DNA of 64,000 nucleotides, taken from contig JAJYNN010000002.1 of NCBI GenBank assembly GCA_021786315.1, positions 31,370 to 95,369 on the forward strand, given 5' to 3'. Below, in pieces: positions 23,545 through 48,676 of this stretch. Below the pieces are notes generated by a model. That model made no database searches and was not told the DNA's origin. It saw only the letters and a list, made by a program, of their open reading frames with translations. Made by a program: the position numbers and the translations under genes. How positions within the stretch are numbered: the stretch's first letter is position 1; every line of letters starts with the position of its first letter. Source of the stretch: a bacterium (GTDB taxonomy: Bacteria > Patescibacteriota > Microgenomatia > Daviesbacterales > UBA10151).

Positions 23545-23589
23545 TTTAGGGCTACCTTTTGACTTTGTCAAAACGATCCTGTAATTTTT
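23545..23589 (-). promoter_or_regulatory. conserved intergenic motif family A (copy 4; reverse orientation) immediately upstream of dnaN
   Basis: Reverse-complement reads AAAAATTACAGGATCG-TTTTGACAAAGTCAAAA-GGTAGCCCTAAATT. Confidence 0.5.
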
Positions 23590-25168: not shown

Positions 25169-25174
25169 ATTATT

Positions 25175-28288: not shown

Positions 28289-30041
28289 TATCTACTTTTT
28301 TCCTTGCGAGGAGTTCCTGGGGGTTGGTGGTGATTAAATTATGCTCTTCTTCTGAGGCAACTACCCTCATGGCAACGTGGGTATTGCCGGCAAAGAACAA
28401 TCCCTGGCCGATACTGCCTGCCTGCAGGATCCTTTTTTCTCCTTGGGAAAGGTTAAAGACCTGGCCTAAGGTTTCCACGGAAATAGGCGCTTGTTTTAGT
28501 AGAACCTGCATGGCGGAGTTGGAAATAATTTCCTTGCCCCGGTCGGTGCCTAAGAAATCCTCCACATCTTGGCTGATAGTGGTTACTCCTAAGAAATATT
28601 TACGTGAACGTTTAACCATCTCTACTAAGAAGGCGGCGGAATCGGGATACTTCATCATGTACCAGGCTTCATCTACTACCAGGATCCTTTTCTTAAGCTC
28701 CCGCCTGATCTTTGTCCAAACATAATCCAGGATCAGGTACATAGCCAAAGGCCGCAGCTGGTCGGGAAGTTCGCGGACGGAAAAGACGGTAAAAGGATTG
28801 TCTAATTTGATATTGGAGTGGGTAGAGAAAATCCCGGATAGTGATCCTTTAATAAACCTCTCTAGTCTTACAGCTAAGGAGTTGGCTATTTGGTCTTCCA
28901 TGCCGATTAAGACTTTATACAGATCCTCCATAAGGGGCGGTTCGGCTCCGGCGGGCATGTTGGTGGAGGTAATTCCTTTGAGGCGGTAAGTCGTATTTAG
29001 TGCCCGGTCTAAGATTGCTGCTTCCTGGGAATTAAGATCCCCTAAAACCAGCTTCAAAAATCCAATTAAAGAAAGGATTTTTCTTCCCAACTCATCCTCG
29101 CCTCTGTCGGCCACTTCCGGCAAGTCAAAGGGGTTAATCTTTACCGGTGAGTTTGAGGAGAAGCTAATATAATCCCCGCCCACGGCTTTAGCTAAATCGG
29201 CATACTCCCTTTCCGGATCGATCACGATAACCTCAGTGCCCAGCATTAACGACCTTAAGGCCTCAAGTTTGACGAAGTAGGATTTACCGCTGCCGGCCGT
29301 GGCCAAAACTACCGAGTTGGCGTTTTCCCCTCCAAAGCGGTCGTAAATAATTAAGGAATCATTATGTTCGTTGATCCCGTAAATTACCCCTTCAGCCGAC
29401 ATCAGTTCAGAAGATGTAAAAGGGAAAGTGGTGGCCAAAGAGGTGGTATCCATGTTGTGGGTCAGGTACAAAAGATCCTGGCCTAACGGCTCGGTGCAGA
29501 TAAACCCTTCCTGCATCTGTAAAATCGAAGGTCTGACAGTCACTGAAATACTTCCTAAGGTTGATTCAACGAGTTGAGATTTGTTGTCGAGCTCGGTTTT
29601 GGACCTGGCGGGAGCAGTAATATATAGGCTGTATTGGAAAAATCTTTCGGCGCCTTTGGCCAGTTGTTCCTGTAAATCCCGGGCATCTTCCAAGGCCACG
29701 GTAACTGAGGGGTCGATCACCCGGCCCCGTTCAACGTCGGTCTGAATGGTTGCCTCCATCTCGGCGATCTTTCTTTTTAGATCATCCAGAACTCCGGCAG
29801 ATTTAGTAGGGTATATAAACATGGAAATATATAAGGAATGCTCAAAAGAAACGAGTGGTTCCAGCCAATTGGGTTGAACAAATCTGGGGTATCCCGAAGC
29901 ATAAAAGGTGCGGTAAACACTGTTACAAAGCCGAAGATACGAAAAATCCACCTCCATCTCTAAAGGTGCAACGACATCTTCAATATTTAGCCCTGTGGAA
30001 ACAGGAGCTGGTTGGTTAGTTTTTTTACGGCCCAAAATCAT
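28281..30041 (-). CDS. VirB4/TraE/TrsE-family T4SS ATPase, C-terminal ATPase portion
   Basis: Walker A LATAGSGKS, Walker B ILVVDEAW, conserved YYRTF...GYP middle region and TTISQDVED block. Confidence 0.85.
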   Translation of the reverse strand: MILGRKKTNQPAPVSTGLNIEDVVAPLEMEVDFSYLRLCNSVYRTFYASGYPRFVQPNWLEPLVSFEHSLYISMFIYPTKSAGVLDDLKRKIAEMEATIQTDVERGRVIDPSVTVALEDARDLQEQLAKGAERFFQYSLYITAPARSKTELDNKSQLVESTLGSISVTVRPSILQMQEGFICTEPLGQDLLYLTHNMDTTSLATTFPFTSSELMSAEGVIYGINEHNDSLIIYDRFGGENANSVVLATAGSGKSYFVKLEALRSLMLGTEVIVIDPEREYADLAKAVGGDYISFSSNSPVKINPFDLPEVADRGEDELGRKILSLIGFLKLVLGDLNSQEAAILDRALNTTYRLKGITSTNMPAGAEPPLMEDLYKVLIGMEDQIANSLAVRLERFIKGSLSGIFSTHSNIKLDNPFTVFSVRELPDQLRPLAMYLILDYVWTKIRRELKKRILVVDEAWYMMKYPDSAAFLVEMVKRSRKYFLGVTTISQDVEDFLGTDRGKEIISNSAMQVLLKQAPISVETLGQVFNLSQGEKRILQAGSIGQGLFFAGNTHVAMRVVASEEEHNLITTNPQELLARKKVDNG

Positions 30042-30870
30042 CGTTTAACTCTTCCACGACAAATGGGGGAGAAAGGGGGGTGGTGGATGAAGGAGCTGGG
30101 GCAGAGGGAATGGGAGTTTGGGGTATGGGGTGAGGCGCAAAAGCTGGTTGAGTGGGAGCGGGTTGAGGTAAAGGTGCAGTAGTTTGGGGAGCAGCTACTT
30201 CCACAGGTTGGTTTATTAGCTTCTTGTCTTCACCGGCCACCTGGTCTACTGATTTATCTGATTTTCTGGCTTCCGGCTTCTGTTTTCCATCCTCCAGGCT
30301 AAACTGGTTTTCCGGATAAGGTGGGTTATAGATGTTGTAAAAGAGGGTCACCAGGTCAGGGGTGGTCATTTGTCTGGACTTTAACCCTAACCTGGAAAGT
30401 TGCCTAATGACGTGGTCTCGCCTGGGGGCAAGCACCGTGGTTGCCCGTTTGCTTTTGTCGGCAATATTTTTAGGTAAAACTCCGAGCTCCACCGGATTTA
30501 CCGCCAGGCAAACATAAAATTGTTTATCCAGGACGTTTTTCTCCTTAATAATACCGGCCACAAATTCGCGGTAACGGGCGGTCATGTTTTTTAACAGGGG
30601 ATTAGTCTGGGTGGCCAAAGCCTTATCTAAAGTTGACAGGTATGATGAGACATCCAGCCTTCTGGACTGGACAACAATTTGGATAGGGAAGGAGAGGGAG
30701 TTTAAAAACCCGGCAAAGGATTCAATAATCGACATTTGCTCAGTTTCAAAAAGCAGCCCGAAGTTCACAGCGGAGGTAGAAATGACCATAGTTACCCCTC
30801 CGTTTTTTAAAAAGACTAAATTATCTTTAATATCGGCAATAGGTACAAAACTTTGGCTACGATTGACCAT
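30025..30870 (-). CDS. VirB4 N-terminal domain encoded as a separate ORF with a Pro-rich C-terminal linker
   Basis: PIADIKDNLVFLKNGGVTMVI...SEEQ pattern typical of the VirB4/CagE N-terminal region; 17-nt overlap with the ATPase ORF in another frame. Confidence 0.5.
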   Translation of the reverse strand: MVNRSQSFVPIADIKDNLVFLKNGGVTMVISTSAVNFGLLFETEQMSIIESFAGFLNSLSFPIQIVVQSRRLDVSSYLSTLDKALATQTNPLLKNMTARYREFVAGIIKEKNVLDKQFYVCLAVNPVELGVLPKNIADKSKRATTVLAPRRDHVIRQLSRLGLKSRQMTTPDLVTLFYNIYNPPYPENQFSLEDGKQKPEARKSDKSVDQVAGEDKKLINQPVEVAAPQTTAPLPQPAPTQPAFAPHPIPQTPIPSAPAPSSTTPLSPPFVVEELNDDFGP

Positions 30871-32062
30871 TTTCTGCTTTCTTTGGATGGATTGTAATTG
30901 GCTGAATAACCTCCCCTTCTAAAGAAATTTGTAAGGTATCAAATTCCATGTTCTCTTTTTCCATGGTTAAGTTGTAGGTTCCTGAGGGGAGTGGAGTGGC
31001 GCCACTGAATTGTCCCAGCTTATTTGTCTTTAACGCCCTTACCGGAAGGCCCTCGCTGTTATGGATAATAACAATTACTCCTTCCAGGAAGTTGCCTGCT
31101 TCATCAGAGATAACTCCGTTGATGACGTTGGGGAGCGAAGTTAGGGTGATCTGGGTCTTAACCTCTTTTTTGGGTTCTACTACCACCACATGAGCTTTTT
31201 GGGGTTGCACAACTGGGGTCGGTACAGCAACAGGGTTTTGGGGTGTGGGCTGAGCGGTTACCTGGTTGATTTGGGAAGTTTGTTGATATAGTTTTCCGGT
31301 TTGGGCAACCAGGTTTTGTAAGTTTTGGGAAGCTTGTTGGAATTTTGCAGCGTATTCCGGCCCCGCGATTTCTTTTTGGGCGGCCATGCTCCGGAGAACT
31401 TGGATTTGCCTTTCGGCTTCGGCGATTTTGGATTGTAATAAATGCGCCTCATTAGCCATAGCTACCAATTTGGATAGGTTTTCACTGGAGGGGAGCGCTG
31501 TTGGCGCAGGATTGGTTTGGGTTGTTGTTTGCAGCTGTGGTGTTGGCTCAGGAGCAGGACTTGGACCAGGTGTTGAGGAAAGTGGTGCCTGTGTTTGAGA
31601 TACCGGGGTTGAAGACGGTGCCAAGCGGGTCATCCTTGGCAGAGGTGCGGCAGATTTGGGCTGGGGAGCGGGAGATGTTACCCCAATATTAGTCAGGTAT
31701 CGTTGCAGACGGTTCTTAAAGAGGGGATCGTTGTCGCTAACCTTATTTTTTTGGCCTGTGATTACCCAAAAGCCTTGGGTAGGCGAGTAAATGGCCTTAA
31801 GAAATGCCAAAACCCAGTGATCTAGAGGCCGGTCAAAGATAGGCACAAAAGCAAAGGCTATGCCGGTTAGGGTTGAGACTGTAATAATAGGCAGAGCCAG
31901 AAAAATATTTACCGGGAAGAGCAGGGTAAAAGATACATAGGCAATGGCAAAGCCGGTAGCCAGATACCCAAACTGTTTTAAGGTCATATCTCCCACCAAA
32001 CGGAACTGGAAGGAAGTGACGTTTTGGGGGACAGGATGATCTAGCATAGCAAAAGGGATCAT
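30857..32062 (-). CDS. PrgI/VirB3-like membrane protein fused to Pro-rich linker, coiled coil and C-terminal CarboxypepD_reg-like beta-sandwich domain
   Basis: N-terminal FQFRLVGDMTLKQF plus two TM helices (PrgI-family pattern); C-terminal GVISDEAGNFLEGVIVII...GxYNL pattern of carboxypeptidase regulatory-like domains. Confidence 0.45.
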   Translation of the reverse strand: MIPFAMLDHPVPQNVTSFQFRLVGDMTLKQFGYLATGFAIAYVSFTLLFPVNIFLALPIITVSTLTGIAFAFVPIFDRPLDHWVLAFLKAIYSPTQGFWVITGQKNKVSDNDPLFKNRLQRYLTNIGVTSPAPQPKSAAPLPRMTRLAPSSTPVSQTQAPLSSTPGPSPAPEPTPQLQTTTQTNPAPTALPSSENLSKLVAMANEAHLLQSKIAEAERQIQVLRSMAAQKEIAGPEYAAKFQQASQNLQNLVAQTGKLYQQTSQINQVTAQPTPQNPVAVPTPVVQPQKAHVVVVEPKKEVKTQITLTSLPNVINGVISDEAGNFLEGVIVIIHNSEGLPVRALKTNKLGQFSGATPLPSGTYNLTMEKENMEFDTLQISLEGEVIQPITIHPKKAENGQS

Positions 32063-32791: not shown

Positions 32792-35230
32792 ATGTCAAAA
32801 GAATTTATGAGTGAAATTGGGTCAGAAATAGCACCAGGATCAGGATCTGGTTTTGTGGAAAATTCCTCTACTGGAGATCAAGGCAGTTCTCCGTCATCTA
32901 GTGAAATACTCAGTTCTCCTGTTACTTCTCCGGAATCAAAAACAACTTCAACAGATGATTTGATTATAAAAGAAGATGGCCATTTTTGGGTAGCTTATGA
33001 TTCTTCAGGTCACGAAGTTAGAAGATTTCCAAAAGTTGAAGGTGGGGCGCCTCGGGGTCGAGGCTTGGATCAAGAATTTCTCGAAGCAGAAGCCGCGAAA
33101 TTAGCAGCGGAAACAGATCCTTATAAAATTATTGCCACTGTAGATGGGATGGCTATTGGGGAAGCTGGGAAACTAGCGATCTTATTGCAAGTAGATAAGC
33201 TGCGGGGAGAACAGCCGTATTTAGTTTGGGAGAGAGTAGAGAACCTAATTCGGGGTATAGAAGCCCAGGGGGCTGAATTTCCTGATGGAACAGCCTCATC
33301 CCTTGCCAATATTGTCAACGAGGGATTGTCATCCAACGATGAGCTGCGTTCGAAACTGTTTAATTTAATTTTAGCCCGTTACCGTTATCAAAACATAAGC
33401 TACGGTATAGAAGTTGTGGGACTGGAGACTGCGGCGAAACATTTTGGTAATTTAAATGGAAAACAAAATGAAGCTATTTTGGGATTAGGTGGCGTCACTC
33501 AGGCGCTTGAGCTGTCTAACCGCCAGGATGTGGTCAGGCAAAAAGATGGTCTCTCAGATCTGGCTAAAAACGTTAACAACCGGATGACTATTGCCCGGGG
33601 AATTCTGGATGGTAAGGATTCAGTGGGGGTGGCTACAAAGAGAGATGAATATCACAAGCTTTTCCCTGACGTTGATATTGACGCTTTAATAAGCAGCGGG
33701 CATATGGAGGAATTATTCGCTTTAGATCTAAGCCTGCTTGCTGTAGTAGAAAAAAAAGGAACAGAAGCTGGCAAGGAAGATTTTATAAAAGCGGTCGATA
33801 AGGTGGCTAAAGTGGGCGATCGAACTTTTACTGATGCAGAGAAAGAAGCCTTAAAGAAATGGTGGGAATCGAGAAATGAGTTGGAACAACGGGCTTTAAG
33901 CAGATTGCAGCATGAAACTGTACGGGCATTTGATTTAGCCAAAAAAGCGATGAATGTGGTAGGAATTACCGGCAGGTATGACAGCCCGGTTGTCCGGACC
34001 GGTAAAGGCGCCAATGATTTTACTTTCTTGGATATTTATAGAGAGCTTGATCCGATTGTTTCCTATGAAGATGCCGCAGGGGAGAAGCTCGAAGTACACC
34101 TTAATTCTGTGGCTGATATAGCAGACGTTGTAAGAACTATCCGCGATGGGTCTGGAAGAGCAGGGATTGTGGCTATTGCCGGTGAAGATGCTGTCGCGAA
34201 AAAAGAAACTGAAACTAAAAAGAGTATTCTGGATGCGAGTGAAGACGATTTAATTAAATTAATCAGAGAAGGAATGTCCAAGGTAGCTACCAGGGCCCAG
34301 GTCGAAGCGATGGCAGCAATCATACCTGATGTCAGAATAAGAAATGGGCTGATTGATTTATGGGCAGTAGATAAGATTAAAAAAGGTGACGAGGCAGTTG
34401 TTAAAGACATTAAAGCAAAGCATGAGAGGGGTGAGGATGTTGGTTTAGATGACTTGAAAGATCTGGATTTAGGTTACTCTTATAAGATTGCCATGGCCTG
34501 GGATAAGGCCTTGCGGGAATACTTTGTAAAACATTGGGATGAAATTTCGATCCCGTTATCTTTACAGGGGAGTGCCCCAACTTCCCTTAAAAGGGCTTAC
34601 TATTTTCCAGCCTTTATTCCCAGAACGTCTAATGCTGATAGAGGCCGGGCAGGTTATCTTTGGAGATATTCCCATCTTAACGCGCTCGATTTAATGAGCT
34701 ATACAGGCAGGTCTTCTATTGTCGACCAGCTCAAAAATTGGGGTGATGACATCGGGATTATTCTTTCTTGGAGCGGAAGGCTAAAAGGAGCGGATGATAT
34801 GCGTAAAGTAATCGCTGCCGGAGGAGAGGTGGCACTCTTGGATAGTCCTGATGTGCTTAATAGCCCTATTACTTCTTTACCGAAGCTAAAAGGGAAAGCT
34901 GCTTATGTTCCACCAGAAGAGCTTCGTGACTATATGGGGCATTGGGCAGAGGGTGTATCAATATTTTTGAGAAAGTTTAACCGACAAACATTTGGTGGGA
35001 AATTTAAGAATGTTGATGTGAGTTCTGAATATGAAACTTATAAAGCCTTAACTGCTCAGGGAGTTATAGATCAGAACGTAGAAAAAGAGCTTGTAAGAAG
35101 AGAGTTTGGTTTCTGGGGGTATTTTAAAGCAGAAGTTATTTTATTTGTTCAAAGAGCGGATTGGGGAGGGGCGTTTGGAGATGCCTTAAAGAAATTTTTA
35201 AGCGCACTTGGTTTAGGTTCAGGAAAATAA
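32792..35230 (+). CDS. large hypothetical protein (812 aa) inside the T4SS-like locus
   Basis: No TM helix or recognisable catalytic motif; S/T-rich disordered N-terminus. Confidence 0.4.
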   Translation: MSKEFMSEIGSEIAPGSGSGFVENSSTGDQGSSPSSSEILSSPVTSPESKTTSTDDLIIKEDGHFWVAYDSSGHEVRRFPKVEGGAPRGRGLDQEFLEAEAAKLAAETDPYKIIATVDGMAIGEAGKLAILLQVDKLRGEQPYLVWERVENLIRGIEAQGAEFPDGTASSLANIVNEGLSSNDELRSKLFNLILARYRYQNISYGIEVVGLETAAKHFGNLNGKQNEAILGLGGVTQALELSNRQDVVRQKDGLSDLAKNVNNRMTIARGILDGKDSVGVATKRDEYHKLFPDVDIDALISSGHMEELFALDLSLLAVVEKKGTEAGKEDFIKAVDKVAKVGDRTFTDAEKEALKKWWESRNELEQRALSRLQHETVRAFDLAKKAMNVVGITGRYDSPVVRTGKGANDFTFLDIYRELDPIVSYEDAAGEKLEVHLNSVADIADVVRTIRDGSGRAGIVAIAGEDAVAKKETETKKSILDASEDDLIKLIREGMSKVATRAQVEAMAAIIPDVRIRNGLIDLWAVDKIKKGDEAVVKDIKAKHERGEDVGLDDLKDLDLGYSYKIAMAWDKALREYFVKHWDEISIPLSLQGSAPTSLKRAYYFPAFIPRTSNADRGRAGYLWRYSHLNALDLMSYTGRSSIVDQLKNWGDDIGIILSWSGRLKGADDMRKVIAAGGEVALLDSPDVLNSPITSLPKLKGKAAYVPPEELRDYMGHWAEGVSIFLRKFNRQTFGGKFKNVDVSSEYETYKALTAQGVIDQNVEKELVRREFGFWGYFKAEVILFVQRADWGGAFGDALKKFLSALGLGSGK

Positions 35231-35235
35231 TTTAA

Positions 35236-37047
35236 TTAAGGTAAGATTCGCCCTATTCTACTCCGAGTATCTGTGGGAGTAGGGCCAAGTCCCATTTTCT
35301 CTTTTTCTTTCGCTTCTGTATAAGCTTTATTTTGTTGTTTAAATCTGGAGGTCAGTTTTCCGTAGAAAGCTTGGCTTACACCCATACCACCCATGAAGCC
35401 TCCAATTATTGATTTGCCAAATAATGGATTATCTTTGATTCCAAAGGCACCCTTAACTGCGTCAGGTATAGAAGGAACCATAAGCAGAACACCATAAGCT
35501 AGAAGTAGACGTAAAAAGTCAGGGCTTAAATTTCCCAAAAGAGGAATGGTACCTGTAAAATTACCCGGATTGCCGGTTACGTTAAAGGGTGCACTCTGCC
35601 ATTTTAAAAGATAAGCAGCAAAAAGTAGTGCGGCAAAAACCGCTGGAAAGACCATCAAATTTCCTAACATATTTTTAATCCAGCTTCCCAAAACGTTTTG
35701 TCTTCCGGGAATACTACCTAAGAGGAACTGGAGGGGAGCTGTGACTGTATTTATTAAAATTGATATGTAAGATGTGATTAATCCGAATACGGTTTTAAAC
35801 ATGGCGATGAGTAATGCAATTATTAAGATAATATATAGCAAAAGCCCAACAATTCCTCCGGCAATATTAAAGTGGGTTAATGCAAAAACTATTCCGCTGC
35901 CGCCGATACATCCAACTGTTTTTTTAGGGTCAAGTGAAAACCCGATACCGAATGGTTTGATATCAATACTAGTAAGCCCTCCAAGCGGGCCCTCATCAAT
36001 AATTTTTTGTCCTAAATAACATCCCACTGCAGCAGAGGTTAGATCGATCATAGTGCCCAAAGGTCCTTGTTTGATGTAATCTAGTGTTTGGGCTGTAGTC
36101 CCGGCAAGTTCCCAGGGGGCATTACTGGTGGGGGAGCTATATTGGCCTACTATGAACGGGCTGAACAGACTAAAAATGTTTTGGCCGCTGAGCAAATTCT
36201 CGGTAGTATTTTTTTGCCCATCAATGATTCCTTCTTGTTCAAAAACTTTGCCTACCAAGTGTACTGAAACAAAAGTGACATCCACTACTAAGGCAGCTAA
36301 AAAGTAGCTGAAAGTAATTAGTATTAAACCGACGACTAGTCCTGGAAGAGCGCTTTGGGCGGAAATAACAGTTTGGGGGTTAATTTTTTGACGGAACATA
36401 ATCATAAAACCTATTACCAGGAAAATAAAAATCATCGCCAGATAGGAGATATTTCTGGCTAGTTTCCATAAAGGTAGGATGGGTGACAAAACATCATTCC
36501 CTGATCCTCTAACCTGGGCGTAAGCAGGTGTAATAATTCCCATACCCTTCCCTGCATCTGCAATATAATCTGCAGCAATTAACGGAGGGGTGGCATAAAG
36601 ATAAGAAATAAAGTAAGTCATTGAGCCGATTGCTCCTCCTGAGGAGATAAATGTTTCCTTGGGAACCATAGTTCCGGCTTTTGGTCCTTGAGTTTCCCTT
36701 TGATATTCGATACAGGGCTGACCAATGATAGAGGATCCTTCCGCTAAACAGCTAAAGGTATGAATTAGATTTATTACTACCATGTTGGCATATTGAGGTG
36801 ATTGATTGGAAAAATTAAGGGAAGTTGGTTGGACAAGTGCAGCGTCTGGAGTGGCAGGTTGAGTTTGGGCTTGAACTGAACTCGCGAAAAACCAGGAACT
36901 GACTATGAGCAGGAAGCTAACCAGGAAACGGGCAGGCATTACATCCAGAATATAATAGTTGGAGTCGAGTTTGCAACCATTAAGGACAGATTGGAGCAAA
37001 GCCGATACAAAATGTAAGGATATTAGGTACTCCGGTGAAAGCGGCAA
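35236..37047 (-). CDS. VirB6/TrbL-like polytopic membrane protein
   Basis: 603 aa; signal-like N-terminus, at least 8 hydrophobic helices, Gly-rich C-terminal tail; last gene of the pilin operon. Confidence 0.5.
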   Translation of the reverse strand: MPLSPEYLISLHFVSALLQSVLNGCKLDSNYYILDVMPARFLVSFLLIVSSWFFASSVQAQTQPATPDAALVQPTSLNFSNQSPQYANMVVINLIHTFSCLAEGSSIIGQPCIEYQRETQGPKAGTMVPKETFISSGGAIGSMTYFISYLYATPPLIAADYIADAGKGMGIITPAYAQVRGSGNDVLSPILPLWKLARNISYLAMIFIFLVIGFMIMFRQKINPQTVISAQSALPGLVVGLILITFSYFLAALVVDVTFVSVHLVGKVFEQEGIIDGQKNTTENLLSGQNIFSLFSPFIVGQYSSPTSNAPWELAGTTAQTLDYIKQGPLGTMIDLTSAAVGCYLGQKIIDEGPLGGLTSIDIKPFGIGFSLDPKKTVGCIGGSGIVFALTHFNIAGGIVGLLLYIILIIALLIAMFKTVFGLITSYISILINTVTAPLQFLLGSIPGRQNVLGSWIKNMLGNLMVFPAVFAALLFAAYLLKWQSAPFNVTGNPGNFTGTIPLLGNLSPDFLRLLLAYGVLLMVPSIPDAVKGAFGIKDNPLFGKSIIGGFMGGMGVSQAFYGKLTSRFKQQNKAYTEAKEKEKMGLGPTPTDTRSRIGRILP

Positions 37048-37279
37048 TTAGTTTCAGTATTAGCCAGGCAAGGATTAAAAATAGTATCCCTAAAAGTGCC
37101 CAGGTGATAGTGCCGGAGGCAGAACTTAAGGCTTTGGATTCTCCTCCGGAGGTAATCATCCTGATACCGGCCCAAGTCAGCATAATGATGACTAAAATAA
37201 AAGCCACACCCACTGAAAGATTAATAATTCTTTGGATTAGCTCTTGAAGTTGTGTAACACCGGCAGGTCCAGGCCCCAT
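36980..37279 (-). CDS. pilin-like small membrane protein, paralog P5 (VirB2/TrbC-like topology)
   Basis: Two hydrophobic helices; ITSGGESKALSSASGTITWALLGILFLILA motif shared with P1-P4. Confidence 0.5.
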   Translation of the reverse strand: MGPGPAGVTQLQELIQRIINLSVGVAFILVIIMLTWAGIRMITSGGESKALSSASGTITWALLGILFLILAWLILKLIAAFTGVPNILTFCIGFAPICP

Positions 37280-37326
37280 GTAACTAAAGGGTACTAAAAA
37301 AAGGGTAGTGAATCAATAACGGAGAT

Positions 37327-37767
37327 TTATCTGACTGGTGTGGGAGTAACTATGATTGGAGCGGTGGATGTCAGAGAGGGGATAGTTAAGTTGCCCAGGA
37401 TGTTAATGCCTAAGATATTGCCGACTACAAAGACTATCACAAAAGCAAATGCCAAGATTGCGAGGCCGATTAAAGCGTTGGTAATTCTCTTCCGGGCATT
37501 GCCTACAGCCTCCTTGTCACCACCGGAGGTGATCCATTGGAAGGCTCCGATAATCAGCATCACCAATACTGCTAAAGCGGCAACAACGAAAATAATTCTG
37601 ATAAGGTTGGTAAAAAGTACCCCGACAATACCATTGGTGGGGGTGATGGCGGTTCCCGGGGGAGGAGCAACGTTGACTGTAATGTCCGCAAAAGCTTTGC
37701 TGGTGATTGCGAGTGAGCCTAAAGTAGTGAGTAAAGCAGCAACTCTTTTCATGACTGATCTCATCAT
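37327..37767 (-). CDS. pilin-like small membrane protein, paralog P4
   Basis: Signal-like N-terminus; QWITSGGDKEAVGNARKRITNALIGLAIL motif; ~48 nt near-identical to P3. Confidence 0.6.
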   Translation of the reverse strand: MMRSVMKRVAALLTTLGSLAITSKAFADITVNVAPPPGTAITPTNGIVGVLFTNLIRIIFVVAALAVLVMLIIGAFQWITSGGDKEAVGNARKRITNALIGLAILAFAFVIVFVVGNILGINILGNLTIPSLTSTAPIIVTPTPVR

Positions 37768-37801
37768 ATGCCGATTATTATTTACTTGTCAAGCACGGCC
37801 T

Positions 37802-38203
37802 TTATTTAGTTAGCTTGACTTGTCCTTCGAAGAATTGGAATCCGGTAATATCGCCAATGACATTAATAATGACCCAGGCTAAAGCCAAAAGAACTATTCC
37901 AATAATTGCCCAAGTGAGCCTTCTCCGGGCGTTGCCTACAGCCTCCTTGTCACCGCCGGAGGTGATCCATTGAAGACCGCTGATTAAAACCATAAAGATA
38001 AAGATTATCCCTGCCGCCACATAAATTAATTGGATTGTATTGTTTAATACCGTGCTAATGCCTTTACCTCCCGGTCCTAAAGCGGCAATTGGGGTAGGGG
38101 CTTCAACTTTTCCGATGACATCGTCCACACTTTGGGCAGCAGCCAGACTAACTTGTTTTAAAAATATGGCGATACCCAAAAGAGGGACAAGAATTTTTTT
38201 CAT
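37802..38203 (-). CDS. pilin-like small membrane protein, paralog P3
   Basis: Signal peptide plus QWITSGGDKEAVGNARRRLTWAIIGIVLL motif. Confidence 0.6.
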   Translation of the reverse strand: MKKILVPLLGIAIFLKQVSLAAAQSVDDVIGKVEAPTPIAALGPGGKGISTVLNNTIQLIYVAAGIIFIFMVLISGLQWITSGGDKEAVGNARRRLTWAIIGIVLLALAWVIINVIGDITGFQFFEGQVKLTK

Positions 38204-38529
38204 GGGTTTGTTTTAATGACCTCGAATCCTTTCAGGCCTAAAAACTCCGGCACAAATTGGATAATTAAAAACATCAGCATTAATAGTATAAAACCTATAA
38301 TAGCATGGATAATCATGTTCCGGGCACCAGAAACGGCATTTTTATCGCCCCCGGAGAGGACAAACCTAAAGGCTCCAATTAAAAAGTAGATAATGACGGC
38401 CAGTGCAGCAATGGCAAATCCCGGGCCGACTAATGCACCCATGACACTGGCTAGTGAATCATAGTTGCCAAAGCCATAAGCATCTTTTAAATCAACACTG
38501 GCAGCATAAGCAGTCGGAATGAAATTCAT
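38200..38529 (-). CDS. pilin-like small membrane protein, paralog P2 (the track ORF 38200..38640 is probably N-terminally over-extended)
   Basis: VLSGGDKNAVSGARNMIIHAIIGFILL motif; start ATG overlaps the stop of P1 (ATGA). Confidence 0.5.
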   Translation of the reverse strand: MNFIPTAYAASVDLKDAYGFGNYDSLASVMGALVGPGFAIAALAVIIYFLIGAFRFVLSGGDKNAVSGARNMIIHAIIGFILLMLMFLIIQFVPEFLGLKGFEVIKTNP

Positions 38530-38864
38530 GGCGTTGTTACGGTTGTTATCGGTATATCTTTTGGTTTGGCCAGATCCTCTTTTAAGAATTGGCTGATAGC
38601 AAAAGCTAGAATCAGTATAACAAAACCAACGATTGACCAAATGATCCTTTTACGGGCATAGGACAAACCTTCCTTACTACCTCCGGCAAAGATGTATTGG
38701 AAAACTCCCCAGGCAAACCAAAAAAGCATTAAAAATCCTCCGACCATTAACGCCAGGTTCAAAAAAGCGGAGATTACTCCTCCTAAGGTAGGTTCTTTAA
38801 TGGCAAAACCCGCCCCGGTTTTTATTGGATCAGCATCAAAAATTGCTTTAAGTCCTGGAATCAT
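38526..38864 (-). CDS. pilin-like small membrane protein, paralog P1
   Basis: IFAGGSKEGLSYARKRIIWSIVGFVIL motif; start overlaps the stop of the upstream adhesin-like gene. Confidence 0.5.
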   Translation of the reverse strand: MIPGLKAIFDADPIKTGAGFAIKEPTLGGVISAFLNLALMVGGFLMLFWFAWGVFQYIFAGGSKEGLSYARKRIIWSIVGFVILILAFAISQFLKEDLAKPKDIPITTVTTP

Positions 38865-40318
38865 GGTTTAAACCCCGGTATTTGTAGTATATCAACACCA
38901 ATAACTCTAAGAAGCATGATAGCTAAAAGTAGAAAAAGTAGCCCAATAGCGGCGTTGACAAACTGATCCTGAGCTCTTTTTAGGTTATCTGGATTCCCAC
39001 CCGAAATAATCCATTGAATTGCCCCAAATATCATTAGCAGTAAAGCAATACCCCCACCAATACCAGCTGCCACTTTAACCAGGCTTTTAACTAAAACAGA
39101 GGGGTCAGTAGGAATACAGCCAACAGAAGTGGAAATCCCTCCTCCTGTAACACCGGCTTGAACATCACATGGATCACCTGTGGCTTTACTGCAACTAGAT
39201 CCTGAGCAATTAAGGGTAGTGGCGGTAGGAACCACAGTTGTGGGTCTCGGCCCTTGGTATTTTTGGACAGTAAACTGAGTGGCAGGACATGCTTCATTTC
39301 CGTTTTGATCATAAAGTTTTAGTGTTGCTGAGTAACCTTCTGAAATTCCTTTGCCGACTACCATTTGGAAAATTTGGCCGTTAGGTCCTGAATTTAGATT
39401 ATCAGCAATAGTGGTGGTTGTTCCTGAATTTATGGAATCAAGTCTAAAATTACTATTTTTAGGAAGGTTTGTAGCGGTGAAGGAAATATTGTCTTGTACT
39501 GTTGGTTGGGAAGGATTAATCAAACAGGTTGGTTGGCGGGTTATCTTTACGGCCCGATAAGTGAAGGTTGTAGAATAGGAACAGGTTAAACCCGCAGTCC
39601 CAAGAGATATTGAACGACCGTTTTTAACGGTTGCACAAATCTTCTTTTCGCCAATCTTTTTAAATCTGTCTCCATCATCACCAGGATTTAAAGAGATGGG
39701 GGTGTTGCTGCTGGAAGGAACTGTTGCCTCTTGGACAGAGAAATGATCTCCTTCCCACCAGAAAAGATAAGCGTTTCCTGGGTTAGCGTTAATCAAAAGG
39801 ACTTGTGGTGTTTCACCTAACTCCAGTTCTTGGATAACAGGTTCTAGTTGGACAGTACTGCCGCCTTGTTGCTGAACTTCGAATGAAGCTAATGCTACAA
39901 CATTGGGGTTACTACTTGGATCTCCTCCGCAGTCACTAACTTGAGTTGCAGCACATACTTTGGCGTACCATGCACCCAAGTTATTTCTTCCTATAGAGCC
40001 TTGAAATAAGTTGATACTGGCGGTAATTGTATGTTCGTCCGTCGGCTGGACGTCATGAACGATATTAAAATAGTTGGCGTAAAGGCCTACATTATTTTGG
40101 GCGGATTGTGGATATAGGATGACTTTATGGTTGGTTGCAGTAATAAATGATGAACACTCGGAGCTGGTTGTGATGGTCATTGAATTTCGGTAATCCGGAT
40201 CAGTAATTATTGAAGGAGTGGCAGTATAGCTACAGGCAGCAAAAGCATTTTTAGGGGTAAAAAGCTGAGCTAAGACTATAACTACGAAGAAAGACAATAA
40301 AGTTAAGAATTTAGGCAT
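38861..40318 (-). CDS. large secreted protein with C-terminal pilin-like domain (candidate minor pilin/tip adhesin)
   Basis: Signal peptide, ~400-aa Cys-containing beta-rich extracellular region, C-terminus IISGGNPDNLKRAQDQFVNAAIGLLFLLLAI matching the P1-P5 motif. Confidence 0.5.
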   Translation of the reverse strand: MPKFLTLLSFFVVIVLAQLFTPKNAFAACSYTATPSIITDPDYRNSMTITTSSECSSFITATNHKVILYPQSAQNNVGLYANYFNIVHDVQPTDEHTITASINLFQGSIGRNNLGAWYAKVCAATQVSDCGGDPSSNPNVVALASFEVQQQGGSTVQLEPVIQELELGETPQVLLINANPGNAYLFWWEGDHFSVQEATVPSSSNTPISLNPGDDGDRFKKIGEKKICATVKNGRSISLGTAGLTCSYSTTFTYRAVKITRQPTCLINPSQPTVQDNISFTATNLPKNSNFRLDSINSGTTTTIADNLNSGPNGQIFQMVVGKGISEGYSATLKLYDQNGNEACPATQFTVQKYQGPRPTTVVPTATTLNCSGSSCSKATGDPCDVQAGVTGGGISTSVGCIPTDPSVLVKSLVKVAAGIGGGIALLLMIFGAIQWIISGGNPDNLKRAQDQFVNAAIGLLFLLLAIMLLRVIGVDILQIPGFKP

Positions 40319-40381: not shown

Positions 40382-42139
40382 TTGGATATGCCCCGGTTGA
40401 ACCTTTTCCAACTTGCCGTAATTGTTGCTTCCCTAATTACCAGCTACTTTATACTAACTACTTTTGCCAAGGCTGATGAAATTGATGATTTACAGAAACA
40501 AATTGATTCCCTAAACAAGGCTCGGGAGATGTCCATCGCCGCTACCAAACCCCTGGAGGGGCAACTGGATTCTTTAAAAATACAGTTGGCCCAAATCCAG
40601 CAAAAATTACAAAACCTTTCCTACAGCATTTCCCAGAAGGAAATTGATCTTAAGCTTCGGGAAGATAAATTGGTGACCCAACAGGCCCTGCTTTCATCCC
40701 GGGTCCGTTCCTACTACATCCGTTCATATTCAGCTACACCGTTATTGGTTATTTTTTCTTCTGCCTCATCAGGTGACTTATTCCGTGACCTTTCTTACCG
40801 CCAGGCTGCTACCCAGGAGGACCAAAAAATCATTACCACCATTACCACAGAGATGTTGGATTTAATTACCCAAAAAGAAAAGCTGGAAAAAGACAAAGCC
40901 AGTTTGGCCTCGCTGCAGTCCCAGGTGGACAAAAATGCTACCTTTTTGGCGGGGGAGGTAGGAAAGGCGAAGGCTTATCAGCAAACTTTGTCCACCCAAA
41001 TTGCCCAGCTTTCTGCCCGGCAGCAGCAGCTATTAGCCCAGAAGTTAGGAAGCTTGAATTTGCCCATTTCGGCTTACGCGATGCACGGTGGGTGTTCCGA
41101 TGACCGGAATACCGATCCCGGTTTCTCCCCCCGCTTTGCCATGTTTACTTATGGTGTGCCCAACAGGGTAGGGTTGAGCCAATATGGGGCCTGGGGTAGG
41201 GCCAAAGCCGGCCAAAATGAGGACCAAATTTTGCGGGCCTACTACAACTTTGATGGCTACCAAAACGTAAATACTGGGGTCAATATCCGGGTCAATGATT
41301 CCAACGGCTTTAACTCCGGCAATATTATTTGGAGCGGAAGTTTGGAAGACTATATAAAAAGAATCTACGAGGTGCCTGATTCCTGGTCAGATAATAATTT
41401 AGCGGCCTTAAAGGCTCAGGCAATTGCCGCCAGGTCTTATGTTTTGGCGGCGACCAATAATGGCGCTTCCTCGATTTGTGCCAACGAAAATTGCCAGGCT
41501 TTCCAAACTAATCCCAAAGGCGGCAACTGGGAGTCGGCGGTGAATGCTACCTCGGGGAAAGTTATGGTCCAGGGTGGCCAGCCGATTAAGGCTTGGTTTT
41601 CCTCAACTCATGGAGGATATGTCTTCAGTTCGGGGGAAATTGGCTGGAGCGGAACTTCCTGGACCAAACATGCAATCGACACCACTTCCGGATCAGCCGG
41701 AAGTTTTGCTGATTTGCAAGGCAATGCCTACGATAAAGACTCACCGGTATTCTATTGTGACTGGGGTTCCCGGGCCCAATACAATAAAACTGCCTGGTTA
41801 AAATCCAGCGAGATGGCGGATATTGTTAACTCTATTTTGCTGGTCCAATCCGACAACTCTGCCGATTCCCATATCCTCCAAACGGATAAAGGCTATCCTG
41901 ACGCCTGGGATGAGAGCAGGGTCAGACAGGAATTATCTAAATACCGGACTCCTTTTAACAGTATTTCCTCAGGGAGTGTTGATGCTGACTTTGGGAACGG
42001 CAGGACGTCTACGGTGCACTTTAGTGGTGACGCCGGCTCAGTGGACTTTCCCGGGGATGTCTTTAAGAAATACTTTAACTTAAGGGCTCCCTCAAACATT
42101 AACATTGTCGGCCCCCTTTACAACCTGGAGAAAAGGTAA
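40382..42139 (+). CDS. membrane-anchored coiled-coil protein with C-terminal SpoIID/LytB-like peptidoglycan lytic domain
   Basis: N-terminal TM then ~200 aa of heptad-rich sequence; C-terminal ALKAQAIAARSYVL...CANENCQAFQ...KAWFSSTHGGYVFS matches SpoIID/LytB conserved blocks. Confidence 0.65.
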   Translation: MDMPRLNLFQLAVIVASLITSYFILTTFAKADEIDDLQKQIDSLNKAREMSIAATKPLEGQLDSLKIQLAQIQQKLQNLSYSISQKEIDLKLREDKLVTQQALLSSRVRSYYIRSYSATPLLVIFSSASSGDLFRDLSYRQAATQEDQKIITTITTEMLDLITQKEKLEKDKASLASLQSQVDKNATFLAGEVGKAKAYQQTLSTQIAQLSARQQQLLAQKLGSLNLPISAYAMHGGCSDDRNTDPGFSPRFAMFTYGVPNRVGLSQYGAWGRAKAGQNEDQILRAYYNFDGYQNVNTGVNIRVNDSNGFNSGNIIWSGSLEDYIKRIYEVPDSWSDNNLAALKAQAIAARSYVLAATNNGASSICANENCQAFQTNPKGGNWESAVNATSGKVMVQGGQPIKAWFSSTHGGYVFSSGEIGWSGTSWTKHAIDTTSGSAGSFADLQGNAYDKDSPVFYCDWGSRAQYNKTAWLKSSEMADIVNSILLVQSDNSADSHILQTDKGYPDAWDESRVRQELSKYRTPFNSISSGSVDADFGNGRTSTVHFSGDAGSVDFPGDVFKKYFNLRAPSNINIVGPLYNLEKR

Positions 42140-46626: not shown

Positions 46627-46716
46627 GGAGAGGTCGCATAGTGGTCTAGTGCGGCGCAGTGCTAATGCGCTGACCCCGTAAGGGGTCCGTGGGTTCAAAT
46701 CCCACCCTCTCCGCCA
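46627..46716 (+). tRNA. tRNA-Ser(GCT)
   Basis: Type II cloverleaf with long variable arm; anticodon loop GTGCTAA; encoded CCA. Confidence 0.85.
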
Positions 46717-46718
46717 AA

Positions 46719-46803
46719 GGAGGGGTCGCATAGTGGTCTAGTGCGGCGGTCTTGAAAACCGCTGTCTCGCAAGGGACCGTGAGTTCGAATCTCACCCCCT
46801 CCG
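46719..46803 (+). tRNA. tRNA-Ser(TGA)
   Basis: Type II tRNA; anticodon loop CTTGAAA; 2 nt after the previous tRNA. Confidence 0.85.
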
Positions 46804-46850
46804 CTTCACATCTTGCAGTTTGTTTCCTATTCATCTAATATGTAGAAGAT

Positions 46851-47063
46851 ATGTTACCTGGATTGGCGGATTTCTTAAATGTTGGTAATCAGTGGCTAGT
46901 TCTTTTAATTGTAATTTGGGAATTGGTTTGGAAAGGGCTTGGACTTTGGAAAGCAGCCAAGAATAACCAAAGATATTGGTTTATAGCCATGTTTCTTTTA
47001 AACACCATCGGCATTCTGCCGATTGTCTACCTAAGATTCTTTCAAAAGAAAATGAAATCGTAG
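46851..47063 (+). CDS. small two-TM membrane protein, hypothetical
   Basis: 70 aa, two hydrophobic helices. Confidence 0.3.
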   Translation: MLPGLADFLNVGNQWLVLLIVIWELVWKGLGLWKAAKNNQRYWFIAMFLLNTIGILPIVYLRFFQKKMKS

Positions 47064-47076
47064 TATACTTTGGGTA

Positions 47077-47691
47077 ATGCCCAAGTTCTTTACCAGGAAA
47101 CCTTCGCTAAAAGAAGAAACAATCCCTGAAGCTGTCAAGCTGCAAACTGAGCCTATTAAAGAAGAAAAGCCACTTCCGGAAACCGAGGATGAAACTTACC
47201 TAATAAAAACCTATCTTAGCTGGACAGCCCCTTCCCGTCCTTTTCGGAAAAAAGACCGCTCCTATTACACCACTATTGCTATCATTGTCATTTTGTTAGC
47301 CTTAATTTTGCTTTTAGCCAAAGAAATTTTGCTAATTGGGGCGATTTTAGCAGCAGCCTTTGTGGCTTATGTGTTAGCTTTTGTGCCCCCTGATGATGTG
47401 GAATATAAAATTTCTTCCCAAGGGGTAACCATTGGAGGACATTTTTATTTTTGGAATCATCTGGATAGCTTTTGGTTTGCTGAGAAAGAAGGGCAGAGGA
47501 TTTTACACATCCTAACCCATTTAAAGTTTCCCGGAGAATTAATGTTGGTTTTGGGGGGACAGGATGAGGAAGAAATTAAAAAAGTTGTGGCCAGGTTTTT
47601 GCCGTTTCATGAAATTGCCCCCAAAAGTTTGATGGAAAAGTGGGGTGATTCGCTGCAAAAACATTTTCCCCTAGAAAATCCTCACCGATAA
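47077..47691 (+). CDS. membrane protein, hypothetical
   Basis: Charged N-terminus, two central TM helices. Confidence 0.35.
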   Translation: MPKFFTRKPSLKEETIPEAVKLQTEPIKEEKPLPETEDETYLIKTYLSWTAPSRPFRKKDRSYYTTIAIIVILLALILLLAKEILLIGAILAAAFVAYVLAFVPPDDVEYKISSQGVTIGGHFYFWNHLDSFWFAEKEGQRILHILTHLKFPGELMLVLGGQDEEEIKKVVARFLPFHEIAPKSLMEKWGDSLQKHFPLENPHR

Positions 47692-47734
47692 GTATTAGAT
47701 TCTAGGTTCCAGTTGTTGTAAAATTCACCTGTAT

Positions 47735-47806
47735 GCCCTCGTAGGCTAATGGATAGACCACGAGATTGCGGATCTTGATATGTGGGTTCGATTCCCGCCG
47801 AGGGCA
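47735..47806 (+). tRNA. tRNA-Arg (anticodon read as GCG; D-stem imperfect)
   Basis: Cloverleaf: acceptor GCCCTCG/CGAGGGC, anticodon stem CGAGA/TCTTG, loop TTGCGGA, T-arm GTGGG-TTCGATT-CCCGC. Confidence 0.55.
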
Positions 47807-47929
47807 CAAACAAACAAAGTGTGGTTTGTGCACGAAGGGGAACAGGATCTTTGACGAAGTCAAAGTAGCCCTAATCCCGCCGAGCGCGCCAAGTTTTGGA
47901 GGTGGGGTTGCATAATCCGCCAGGTGACG

Positions 47930-47975
47930 GATTGCGATAGTTCCACTGCTTCGCAGTGTGTAACTATCTAATGCG
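47930..47975. repeat. 38-nt hairpin repeat, copy 1 (GATAGTTCCACTGCTTCGCAGTGTGTAACTATCTAATG)
   Basis: Inverted repeat GATAGTT...AACTATC with an inner CACTGC/GCAGTG stem; a second copy at ~48120-48157 differs by 2 nt. Confidence 0.6.
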
Positions 47976-47988
47976 GCCTAGATAATTT

Positions 47989-48074
47989 GGAGGGTTGTCC
48001 GAGTGGTTTATGGAGATTGTTTCGAAAACAATTGGTGCGAAAGCGCCGCGCAGGTTCGAATCCTGCACCCTCCG
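47989..48074 (+). tRNA. tRNA-Ser(CGA)
   Basis: Type II tRNA; anticodon stem ATTGT/ACAAT, loop TTCGAAA; T-arm GCAGG-TTCGAAT-CCTGC. Confidence 0.75.
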
Positions 48075-48077
48075 CAC

Positions 48078-48170
48078 TTGCCTTCGTAGGCTAATGGATG
48101 AAGGAGTAAAGCTCCTTCCGATAGTTCCACTGCTTTGCAGTGTATAACTATCTAATGGCCACGAGATAAT
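48078..48170 (+). pseudogene. truncated tRNA-like fragment (copy of the 5' half of tRNA 47735..47806) interrupted by hairpin repeat copy 2
   Basis: GCCTTCGTAGGCTAATGGAT...GGCCACGAGATAATG parallels GCCCTCGTAGGCTAATGGATAGACCACGAGATTGCG with a ~57-nt insertion in the D-loop; runs directly into tRNA-Arg(CCG). Confidence 0.45.
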
Positions 48171-48243
48171 GTGCCCGTGGCGCAATGGATAGCGCATCAG
48201 ATTCCGGATCTGAGGGTTGGAGGTTCGAATCCTCTCGGGCACG
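48171..48243 (+). tRNA. tRNA-Arg(CCG)
   Basis: Clean cloverleaf: GTGCCCG/CGGGCAC acceptor, D-arm GCGC-AATGGATA-GCGC, anticodon loop TTCCGGA. Confidence 0.8.
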
Positions 48244-48250
48244 CTTTAAA

Positions 48251-48676
48251 ATGACAAGAGAATTTTCTGCAGGCGGAATAGTTTTTAATACTTCTGGGCA
48301 AGTCCTGCTTATTTGTGCTTCAGCCATGAAGGAACCGGAGAAAAAGCATTGGGGTTTTCCTAAAGGTAATGTCGGAGAAGGGGAGAGCATGAAGGAAGCG
48401 GCTTTACGCGAGGTGAGAGAGGAATCCGGAGTGGAGGCAGAAATTACCGCCAAAGTGGGAGACTCTAAGTATGTTTATACCCGGCCTTGCAGTGGGGAGA
48501 AGGTTTTTAAAGTGGTGAGTATTTTTTTAATGAAATATCTCTCCGGAGATACCAAAGATCATGATTGGGAAGTGGAAGATGTTGGATGGTTCGAACCGGA
48601 AGAAGCTTTAAAAACACTGAGTTTTTCCCAGGATAAGCTTTTATTAAAGAAGGCTTTGGAGATATATGGCCAGTAA
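48251..48676 (+). CDS. NUDIX hydrolase
   Basis: Nudix box GEGESMKEAALREVREESGVEAEI; track ORF 48185 start overlaps tRNA-Arg, so the internal Met MTREF is the likely start. Confidence 0.7.
   Translation: MTREFSAGGIVFNTSGQVLLICASAMKEPEKKHWGFPKGNVGEGESMKEAALREVREESGVEAEITAKVGDSKYVYTRPCSGEKVFKVVSIFLMKYLSGDTKDHDWEVEDVGWFEPEEALKTLSFSQDKLLLKKALEIYGQ

Follow-up and report, generated by a model that had tools for sequence, protein, structure and literature searches.

A six-gene array of type IV secretion system pilin-family proteins with a variable head domain on its first subunit in a Daviesbacterales genome

The 64-kb stretch of DNA analysed here (hereafter the window; contig JAJYNN010000002.1 of assembly GCA_021786315.1, positions 31,370 to 95,369) comes from a bacterium of the Daviesbacterales (Patescibacteriota, Microgenomatia) and carries six consecutive pilin-family genes on the minus strand, between positions 36980 and 40318. 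The first gene encodes a 485-amino acid (aa) protein with a large ectodomain in front of its pilin domain, and we refer to it as the head pilin. It is followed by five small genes, P1 to P5, which occupy positions 2 to 6 of the array. As judged from a sequence comparison with arrays in related genomes, the six genes are ancient position-specific orthologous groups. We read the region, with a probability of about 0.6, as the pilin operon of a chromosomal, non-conjugative-looking type IV secretion system (T4SS) of the Patescibacteria, which would provide an assembly of six different subunits, the first of them bearing a head for host recognition.

Six pilin-family genes with position-specific orthologs

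The initial annotation of this region, made from the letters alone, had proposed that the small genes are pilin-like and that the 485-aa protein ends in the same domain. All six array proteins matched the Pfam family PF18895 (T4SS_pilin, gathering threshold 26.6 bits), five of them above the threshold and P2, at 24.4 bits, just under it. This places the genes in the T4SS (VirB2-like) pilin family and confirms that the C-terminus of the 485-aa protein is the same pilin domain as that of the small genes. The open reading frames (ORFs) had been placed correctly (Table 1), and when we ran our own pilin hidden Markov model (HMM) on all window ORFs of at least 55 aa, it matched exactly six genes, all of the array. 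The sequence motif that had been proposed for the proteins fitted only P5 in its literal form; a looser version, [STA]-G-G-x7-A-x9-G-x3-L, is common to all six, with G, G, A, G and L as the invariant columns. The signal-like N-terminus that had been ascribed to every small protein was found in P3 and, weakly, in P4, as well as in the 485-aa protein, and P1, P2 and P5 are made up of the hairpin's two helices alone.

An AlphaFold2 model of P3 reached a predicted local distance difference test score (pLDDT) of 82 and contained a hairpin of two helices (residues 46-81 and 86-120) with a core above 90. In the model of the head pilin, helices were placed at residues 406-438 and 443-472 with a pLDDT of 70-83, in agreement with a hydropathy scan. 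Type IV pilin families were not among the Pfam matches of the array proteins, and the two-helix C-terminal hairpin of the array pilins is unlike an architecture of a class III signal peptide, a single alpha-1 helix and a globular head. A comparison with VirB2/TrbC profiles had been proposed as a check, and its outcome was divided: PF18895 gave support, and the cut-off of PF04956 (TrbC/VirB2, 27.9 bits) was not reached. P3 scored 23.6 bits against the latter (E = 6e-5, profile positions 25-96 of 98), and the Pfam scan returned no PF04956 match for the other five array proteins. P3 also matched NCBIfam NF045849 (Mbov_0395 pilin-like) with 28.6 bits (E = 8.4e-7), below the cut-off of 40.

Short proteins with two helices, for which structure searches return many unrelated hairpins, might also be no family at all, but holins, bacteriocin-immunity proteins or other small membrane proteins in which a low-complexity hydrophobic motif recurs by chance. 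Against this stand the curated PF18895 threshold passed by five of the six, the thousands of homologs, the conserved synteny beside T4SS genes, and the neighbouring ORFs scanned, which contained no lysis or bacteriocin genes. The profile and synteny evidence thus rules out the holin, bacteriocin-immunity and chance-motif explanations, and we consider this alternative effectively refuted.

A genome scan with the conserved anchor of the first-position protein yielded 30 loci, mostly from metagenome-assembled genomes (MAGs) of Daviesbacteria or Microgenomates, and identities and clustering were determined on 18 arrays. About 20 loci share the same layout, in which the first gene is long (348-647 aa), the next four are small and the last is short (95-121 aa). 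The mean identity was 0.50 for the same position in different loci and 0.27 for different positions, both within the same locus and between different loci. Hierarchical clustering recovered the positions cleanly and placed P3 and P4 (positions 4 and 5) in sister groups. A separate consensus was obtained for every position, and conservation of the hairpin was highest at position 1 (0.61). P1 groups with the position-2 genes from 17 other loci, and P2 falls clearly into the position-3 orthologous group and is gene-called as a 109-aa protein on public contigs. The recent duplication that the initial annotation had suggested is not supported by these data, since each gene has its own same-position ortholog across the 18 arrays, with identities of 0.50 versus 0.27.

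Several loci depart from the six-gene layout. In two seven-gene arrays (L001 and L019), the position-5 type is duplicated. Distant nine-gene arrays (L026, L027 and L029) have the position-1 type first and, like all the other arrays, the position-6 type last, and their middle genes match best to the position-4/5 types. Their nine genes lie in two blocks (L026 12990-15836, L027 10710-13304, L029 5002-7623), in which the position-1 type and one other gene are followed by a gap of 2-4 kb and then by seven genes ending in the position-6 type. Positions 2 and 3 are fused into one two-hairpin ORF, with their order kept, in L018 (8341-9024), L020 (5313-5945) and L021 (4061-4810), which suggests that the position-2 and position-3 subunits may be neighbours in the assembly. 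Because of the position-wise orthology and these layout variants, the array would be expected to encode a hetero-oligomer of specialised subunits.

The exact 485-aa protein is present on seven public contigs, and the public contigs with the exact 485-aa and P3 proteins reach a length of 942,606 bp. The nearest homologs bear the names Candidatus Daviesbacteria or Microgenomates. The MAG records L009, L011-L013, L015, L020, L022-L025, L027 and L031, which carry Daviesbacteria-type operons, are titled 'uncultured Gammaproteobacteria' or 'Pseudomonadales', which is probably a taxonomic mislabel of the bins. As regards individual small pilins, P4 probably starts at the ATG at 37752, giving a 141-aa protein beginning MKRVAALL, and 141 aa is also the length called on a public contig. 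The P5 type ends in a tail of the form F-C-I-G-F-x(2-3)-C with two conserved cysteines (window 36980-37030, minus strand; L010 9771-10130). The position-6 pilin of L010 has a cleavable signal peptide, and the window copy begins at the equivalent mature N-terminus (GPGPAG).

A near-identical stretch shared by P3 and P4 had been interpreted as a sign of recent duplication or gene conversion, and the diversification of the pilins as a sign of antigenic or functional variation. The stretch is real: it comprises 49 nucleotides (nt), of which 47 are identical, and there is no other copy in the window (exact borders in Table 1). At informative identical residues, the same codon is used in 13 of 15 cases inside the tract and in 6 of 31 outside it (Fisher p = 1.9e-5). 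Outside the tract, P3 and P4 share 43% nucleotide identity, and for this reason, and because of their separate orthologs, we reject a recent duplication of P3 and P4. Gene conversion was borne out by the codon agreement inside the tract and by similar tracts in other genomes. Within-genome position-4/position-5 tracts with genome-specific codons were found in L024 (55 nt), L017 (39 nt), L010 (33 nt), L023 (32 nt) and L016 (31 nt). The pooled same-codon fraction was 0.61 within genomes versus 0.46 between genomes, and a fraction of at least 0.8 was reached by 4 of 15 within-genome pairs versus 11 of 450 between-genome pairs. At the level of sequence, such a pattern would be expected if short tracts had repeatedly undergone gene conversion between the two youngest paralogs, within the loop only. 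As a protein sequence, the loop motif is conserved in the position-4 and position-5 groups alike. A functional element at the nucleotide level behind the 49-nt identity is less likely, since orthologs elsewhere use other synonymous codons there.

Gene-conversion tracts of this kind, here and in other genomes, would be expected if the array consisted of interchangeable recent duplicates that are shuffled by recombination for antigenic or phase variation. Such variation has been proposed for the VirB2 paralogs of Bartonella and Anaplasma (cited in PMC12102498). The paralogs are ancient, however, with one ortholog per position in 18 arrays, and the within-genome identity of 0.27 equals the between-position background. 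Paralogs within a locus are thus not closer to each other than same-position copies across loci (0.50), which is not the pattern of antigenic cassettes. In addition, every copy in the array is complete and full-length, all have the same orientation, and the first four are coupled. All are either co-transcribed or coupled, and there is no silent copy. The converted tract itself is the conserved loop, which, by analogy with VirB2 topology, would point first to the cytoplasm and then to the lumen of the filament, and not the exposed variable part. Because the tract is this inward loop, it does not fit variation of an exposed epitope. Antigenic variation, as originally suggested for the pilin diversification, is therefore not upheld, and we give this explanation hardly any chance.

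The head-bearing first subunit

Proteins homologous to the 485-aa protein are 281-590 aa long and match it, at about 50% identity, in the last quarter only. When 39 first-position proteins were compared, all 1482 anchor pairs were detectable by BLASTP, with a mean identity of 55%, and the ectodomains of the same proteins were detectable in 62 of 1482 pairs, a count that includes duplicates of one protein. The window ectodomain alone had no homolog at E <= 1e-3 in a search of 5.8 billion proteins. Its residues 42-132 share 48% identity with the sole module of a 282-aa protein (P0002), and residues 142-355 show approximately 30-35% identity with L014 and P0006, whose N-terminal modules differ. 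Because separate modules match different proteins, the ectodomain appears to be a mosaic. In one close pair (P0017 and L021), a hand count from the alignment gave approximately 80% identity for the ectodomain versus 94% for the anchor. The hairpin is preceded by a conserved cysteine-containing neck, C...C...GC[IV]PT, whose cysteines would allow disulfide bonds.

Ectodomain size across the loci ranges from absent to approximately 550 aa. In L010 and L017, two large genomes of Daviesbacteria or Microgenomates, the first gene encodes only 135-136 aa, comprising a signal peptide, neck and hairpin without an ectodomain, and the first ORF of L006 is also short (153 aa). L010 (10137-12182) and L017 (10074-12179) have an extra gene after the last pilin and ahead of the polytopic membrane protein. 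It encodes a secreted, Cys-rich protein of 681-701 aa without a Pfam match. This protein could supply the head function in trans in these two cases, which are probably close relatives. A profile search of 1.84 billion cluster representatives (50% identity) gave 24,156 matches at E <= 1e-3, of which 3,030 also had E <= 1e-30; nearly all of the best 150 were 340-680 aa long. Since there are 3,030 such clusters and the best 150 matches are mostly long, head pilins with long ectodomains are abundant in nature, and very common in metagenomes.

In an AlphaFold2 model of the whole 485-aa protein, based on 19 sequences, the ectodomain had a pLDDT of approximately 30 with some beta strands, and only the signal peptide, neck strands and hairpin were confident. 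A Foldseek search of the PDB with this model returned nothing meaningful. The signal peptide and the topology would place the head on an outward-facing N-terminus. It had been proposed that the protein displays a tip adhesin on a pilin scaffold. The topology, the conserved anchor with its hypervariable, mosaic ectodomain and the fixed first place in the array make this proposal plausible, with the filament, the tip location and the binding as its putative parts. No description of head-bearing pilins was found in the searchable literature, which does not reach most subscription journals.

Expression layout and genomic context

Translational coupling by ATGA start/stop overlaps had been described at 38861-38864 and 38526-38529. 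Both are present, and a third at 38200-38203 brings the total to three, so that genes 1 to 4 are joined, with the start of P1 overlapping the stop of the head pilin and P2 overlapped at both ends. P3 is the last gene of the coupled block and is separated from P4 by 34 nt, and P4 from P5 by 47 nt. The P3-P4 spacer region contains a promoter-like element (Table 1) that matches the sigma-70 consensus at 11 of 12 positions. It is headed by the 9-mer CTTGACAAG, of which the window has a single copy. Seventeen other loci also have one copy each, which in 16 cases lies in the equivalent spacer and on the array strand. The loci with CTTGACAAG in equivalent spacers include L001, L005, L008, L010-L012, L014-L017 and L021-L024. 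In most loci, a -10-like hexamer lies 17-18 nt after the CTTGACAAG box and the start codon 6-10 nt further, and because of this short distance, the position-5 mRNA may be leaderless. The spacer before P5 contains TTGATT-N17-TAGTAC, and the related TTGAC(C)-N17-TAGTAC(T) recurs in several loci. From these sequence features, the array looks like a coupled block of positions 1 to 4 plus two separately promoted genes. In L006 (approximately 8940-9160), the position-4/5 spacer has grown to 225 nt and contains two tandem copies of approximately 88 nt (CGCTATTGTCATCCCTGGCTTGACCAGGGATCC...) upstream of a TTGACAA box.

The core of a T4SS lies approximately 5-7 kb from the pilin array and comprises a PrgI/VirB3-like fusion, a TrsD-like protein and a VirB4-like ATPase of the CD1110 family. 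The 401-aa PrgI/VirB3-like protein has a C-terminal CarboxypepD_reg-like beta domain, and VirB4 is seemingly split into a TrsD-like N-terminal part of 281 aa and an ATPase of 586 aa (28281-32062, minus strand). Directly downstream of the array is the gene for a polytopic membrane protein of 567 aa, whose place after the array is kept in L001, L003, L010 and L017. Neither this protein nor its orthologs had a Pfam (to E = 10) or NCBIfam match, and by position and topology it is a candidate for a divergent VirB6-type channel subunit. On the other side of the array, a divergent gene encodes a SpoIID/LytB protein, as in L001 and L010, and its product is possibly a cell-wall remodelling partner. A 780-aa protein weakly resembling a type IV coupling protein (T4CP/VirD4), approximately 17 kb from the pilin operon, is, from its sequence, a possible coupling protein.

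VirB4, TrsD-like and PrgI-like proteins and this weak VirD4/T4CP-like match (57765-60107) could also belong to the conjugative DNA-transfer pilus of an integrated mobile element. The surroundings, however, are those of a housekeeping region: besides dnaA and dnaN, the window holds dnaG, leuS, groEL, tsaD and ten tRNA genes, and it is chromosomal. The neighbouring smpB and SpoIID genes are the same in related genomes. Moreover, no relaxase domain was found in the ORFs scanned, a scan that was not exhaustive. We regard a conjugative pilus as very improbable.

Some further features of the surroundings were recorded. The T4SS genes are flanked by two small secreted Big_5 Ig-like proteins and by two large proteins (792 and 812 aa) without a family match (24704-28288, minus strand; 32792-35230, plus strand). 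The gene for the 812-aa protein is convergent with that for the polytopic membrane protein, and this position is kept on public contig L003. Five plus-strand tRNA genes are located at 46627-48244 (Ser-GCT, Ser-TGA, Arg-GCG, Ser-CGA and Arg-CCG), and the listed ORF 48185-48676 begins within the last of these (48171-48244).

Table 1. Coordinates of the pilin array, its elements and neighbouring genes in the window
Feature	Position	Strand	Description
Head pilin (position 1)	38861-40318	minus	485 aa; PF18895 33.4 bits over aa 411-473
Head pilin, signal peptide	aa 1-26		
Head pilin, ectodomain	aa 27-367; nt 39218-40240		Cys-containing, beta-rich
Head pilin, conserved Cys neck	aa 368-405; nt 39104-39217		
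Head pilin, T4SS_pilin helical hairpin	aa 406-472; nt 38903-39103		
Head pilin, conserved tail	after the hairpin		GVDILQIPGF
P1 (position 2)	38526-38864	minus	112 aa, two-helix hairpin; PF18895 30.1 bits
P2 (position 3)	38200-38529	minus	109 aa from ATG at 38529; PF18895 24.4 bits
P3 (position 4)	37802-38203	minus	133 aa, signal peptide and hairpin; PF18895 52.1 bits
P4 (position 5)	37327-37767	minus	146-aa ORF, weak signal peptide and hairpin; PF18895 31.3 bits
P5 (position 6)	36980-37279	minus	99 aa, shortest pilin; PF18895 38.5 bits
Gene-conversion tract	37491-37539 (P4), partner 37924-37972 (P3)	minus	encodes loop QWITSGGDKEAVGNAR
Promoter-like element, P3-P4 spacer	37763-37793	minus	CTTGACAAG (37785-37793) with TTGACA, 18 nt, TATGAT (ends 37763)
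Polytopic membrane protein	35236-36939	minus	567 aa, signal peptide and several transmembrane helices
SpoIID/LytB coiled-coil secreted protein	40382-42139	plus	585 aa; PF08486 48.4 bits, TIGR02669 103.9 bits
PrgI/VirB3-like fusion	30857-32062	minus	PF12666 PrgI 28.5 bits
TrsD-like protein	30025-30870	minus	NF041427 weak match
VirB4-like ATPase, CD1110 family	28281-30041	minus	NF045971 374 bits versus cut-off 325
T4CP/VirD4-like protein (weak)	57765-60107	plus	780 aa; PF02534 T4SS-DNA_transf 25.3 bits versus cut-off 20.1; weak DUF87
dnaA	21562-22887		
dnaN	23588-24703		

A possible assembly and its relation to known systems

If the region is the pilin operon that we propose, the six different VirB2-like membrane hairpin subunits would form a hetero-oligomer and would not act as interchangeable variants. 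The signal peptides, hydrophobic segments and loop charge suggest that the subunits would insert with their N- and C-termini outside and the short, mostly basic SGG-loop inside. By analogy with VirB2 biology, a VirB4 machine and the divergent VirB6-like protein would take the subunits out of the membrane and build from their stacks a filament or stalk that extends to the host cell. The coupling of genes 1 to 4 would provide these subunits in matched, probably low amounts. Because genes 5 and 6 have promoter-like elements of their own, and the gene 5 type duplicates in larger arrays and undergoes exchange with gene 4, the bulk subunits may be those of positions 5 (and 4) and 6, with positions 1 to 3 as a minor or priming set. 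The position-1 head would most likely serve to recognise or adhere to the host surface, from the far end or the surface of the assembly. A more specific form of this proposal, in which the subunits make an ordered six-subunit filament in a monoderm envelope and position 1 is a modular scaffold for swappable, fast-evolving host-recognition heads, is tentative, and we place it somewhat on the wrong side of even odds.

The hairpins might instead belong to a membrane-embedded assembly, as anchors or as a c-ring-like ring or channel, with the 485-aa protein as a tethered surface protein. A pilus has never been observed in Patescibacteria, and the parent monoderm MPF-FATA systems are generally without pili. 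The structure annotation of the pilins of Southlakia epibionticum also matched ATP synthase subunit c and other helical hairpins, our fold searches were equally non-specific, and the position-2/3 fusions, with four helices, are compatible with such an assembly. The relationship of the family to TrbC/VirB2 and to the Mycoplasma pilin-like proteins, although below thresholds, speaks against it. Six specialised subunits with bookend types and an outward N-terminal head would fit an ordered extracellular polymer better, and the strongly conserved extracellular neck and C-terminal tail are unusual for a plain tether. We consider a membrane-embedded assembly unlikely, but as the chief alternative it deserves to be taken seriously.

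A number of points weigh against the proposed pilin operon with a host-recognition head. By sequence, membership of the canonical VirB2/TrbC family is not reached, and a search of PDB sequences with a profile of 41 small pilins returned no match at E <= 10. Fold searches with the helical hairpin were non-specific, with many unrelated hairpins, and the sole match to a conjugative-pilus fold was 8dfu, at E = 8.3. Since the ectodomain is missing in at least two complete-looking genomes (L010 and L017), it seems dispensable for the core function. With the ectodomain modelled at a pLDDT of approximately 30, the label of adhesin is drawn from topology and evolutionary pattern only. The promoter call is a consensus match, and CTTGACAAG is a near-palindrome that could alternatively be an operator. 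In the literature, a pilus in these monoderms was called an 'intriguing possibility' in a 2025 review, none having been seen in any patescibacterium (PMC12857230), and a 2024 perspective described the role of the T4SS as 'completely unknown' (PMC11665869).

Among systems with a pilus, the array shares with VirB2/TrbC/TraA (PF04956; T-pilus and F-pilus) the small size, the two hydrophobic helices, the short basic loop and the VirB4 ATPase encoded alongside. The termini of F- and T-pilins face outward, and an N-terminal payload could thus sit outside the filament. The array differs from these systems in its below-threshold similarity, the lack of a PDB sequence match, the monoderm envelope and the lack of a detected VirB5 in the scanned ORFs, as well as in having six different subunits, with a large domain fused to one of them, versus one major pilin. 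In minor-pilin sets such as GspH-I-J-K and FimU-PilVWX-PilY1, distinct co-transcribed paralogs are encoded apart from the abundant major subunit, and in type IV pili and type II secretion, one large-headed minor pilin caps or primes the filament and binds. The several distinct, conserved and co-transcribed pilin paralogs are alike by analogy only, since fold and machinery are unrelated, and here a VirB4-type T4SS, and not PilB/GspE, would carry out the assembly. The Mbov_0395 pilin-like protein (NF045849) of a Mycoplasma integrative and conjugative element is likewise a small pilin-like hairpin of a monoderm MPF-FATA-type system, but it is encoded by a single gene on a mobile element and has no known head domain.

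VirB2 arrays next to a T4SS are known from Bartonella, Anaplasma and Rickettsia, where the tandem copies are also divergent and have been proposed to serve antigenic or host-range variation (cited in PMC12102498). The conserved orthologs found here indicate specialisation rather than variation. Those other bacteria are diderm and intracellular. Within the Patescibacteria, Wang et al. (2023) reported a predicted pilin series within the essential T4SS cluster of S. epibionticum (PMC10633639), and in this species, the only one in which the need for the T4SS has been tested, the pilin array is itself essential (PMC10633639). Its genes SEML1_0014-0019 are all small (approximately 127-185 aa) and all PF18895 (PMC10633639 supplement). 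The six pilins of S. epibionticum compare with six domain types here. There, all six are small and VirB6 precedes the array; here, the first subunit bears a 340-aa ectodomain and the array precedes the putative VirB6. In 383 assemblies of Patescibacteria, Quinonero-Coronel et al. (2025) catalogued 441 VirB2 arrays, each with 2-11 genes (PMC12102498). These arrays are enriched in Microgenomatia and Saccharimonadia, have a mean identity of 25% and are often near dnaA, and antigenic variation or adaptation to host strains were raised as possibilities for them (PMC12102498). VirB6 was scarce in Microgenomatia, suggesting extreme divergence, and no adhesins were detected in this survey of Patescibacteria T4SS (PMC12102498). 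The array described here resembles the published ones in its PF18895 domains, tandem copies of approximately 25% identity, chromosomal location near virB4 and dnaA, and the lack of an evident relaxase.

The tandem array itself is thus of a published kind and ordinary for the phylum (PMC10633639, PMC12102498). Within the searchable literature, no variant of the published array class with a head-bearing first subunit and an ordered architecture of six types has been described, and we found no account there of orthology by position, of a hypervariable head, of a promoter-like motif inside the array or of gene conversion in the loop. If none of our interpretations holds, the locus is one more already catalogued array. 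If they are true, the modular position-1 heads would be the adhesin reported as 'not detected', and they would give a genomic read-out of host specificity in uncultured ultrasmall bacteria. The six-type set, the position-2/3 fusions and the split expression provide constraints for modelling a possible first monoderm T4SS pilus. Should the head be the host-contact module, it would be a target for antibodies, binders or CRISPR interference in cultivable relatives, and host range would become comparable or predictable across thousands of uncultured lineages.

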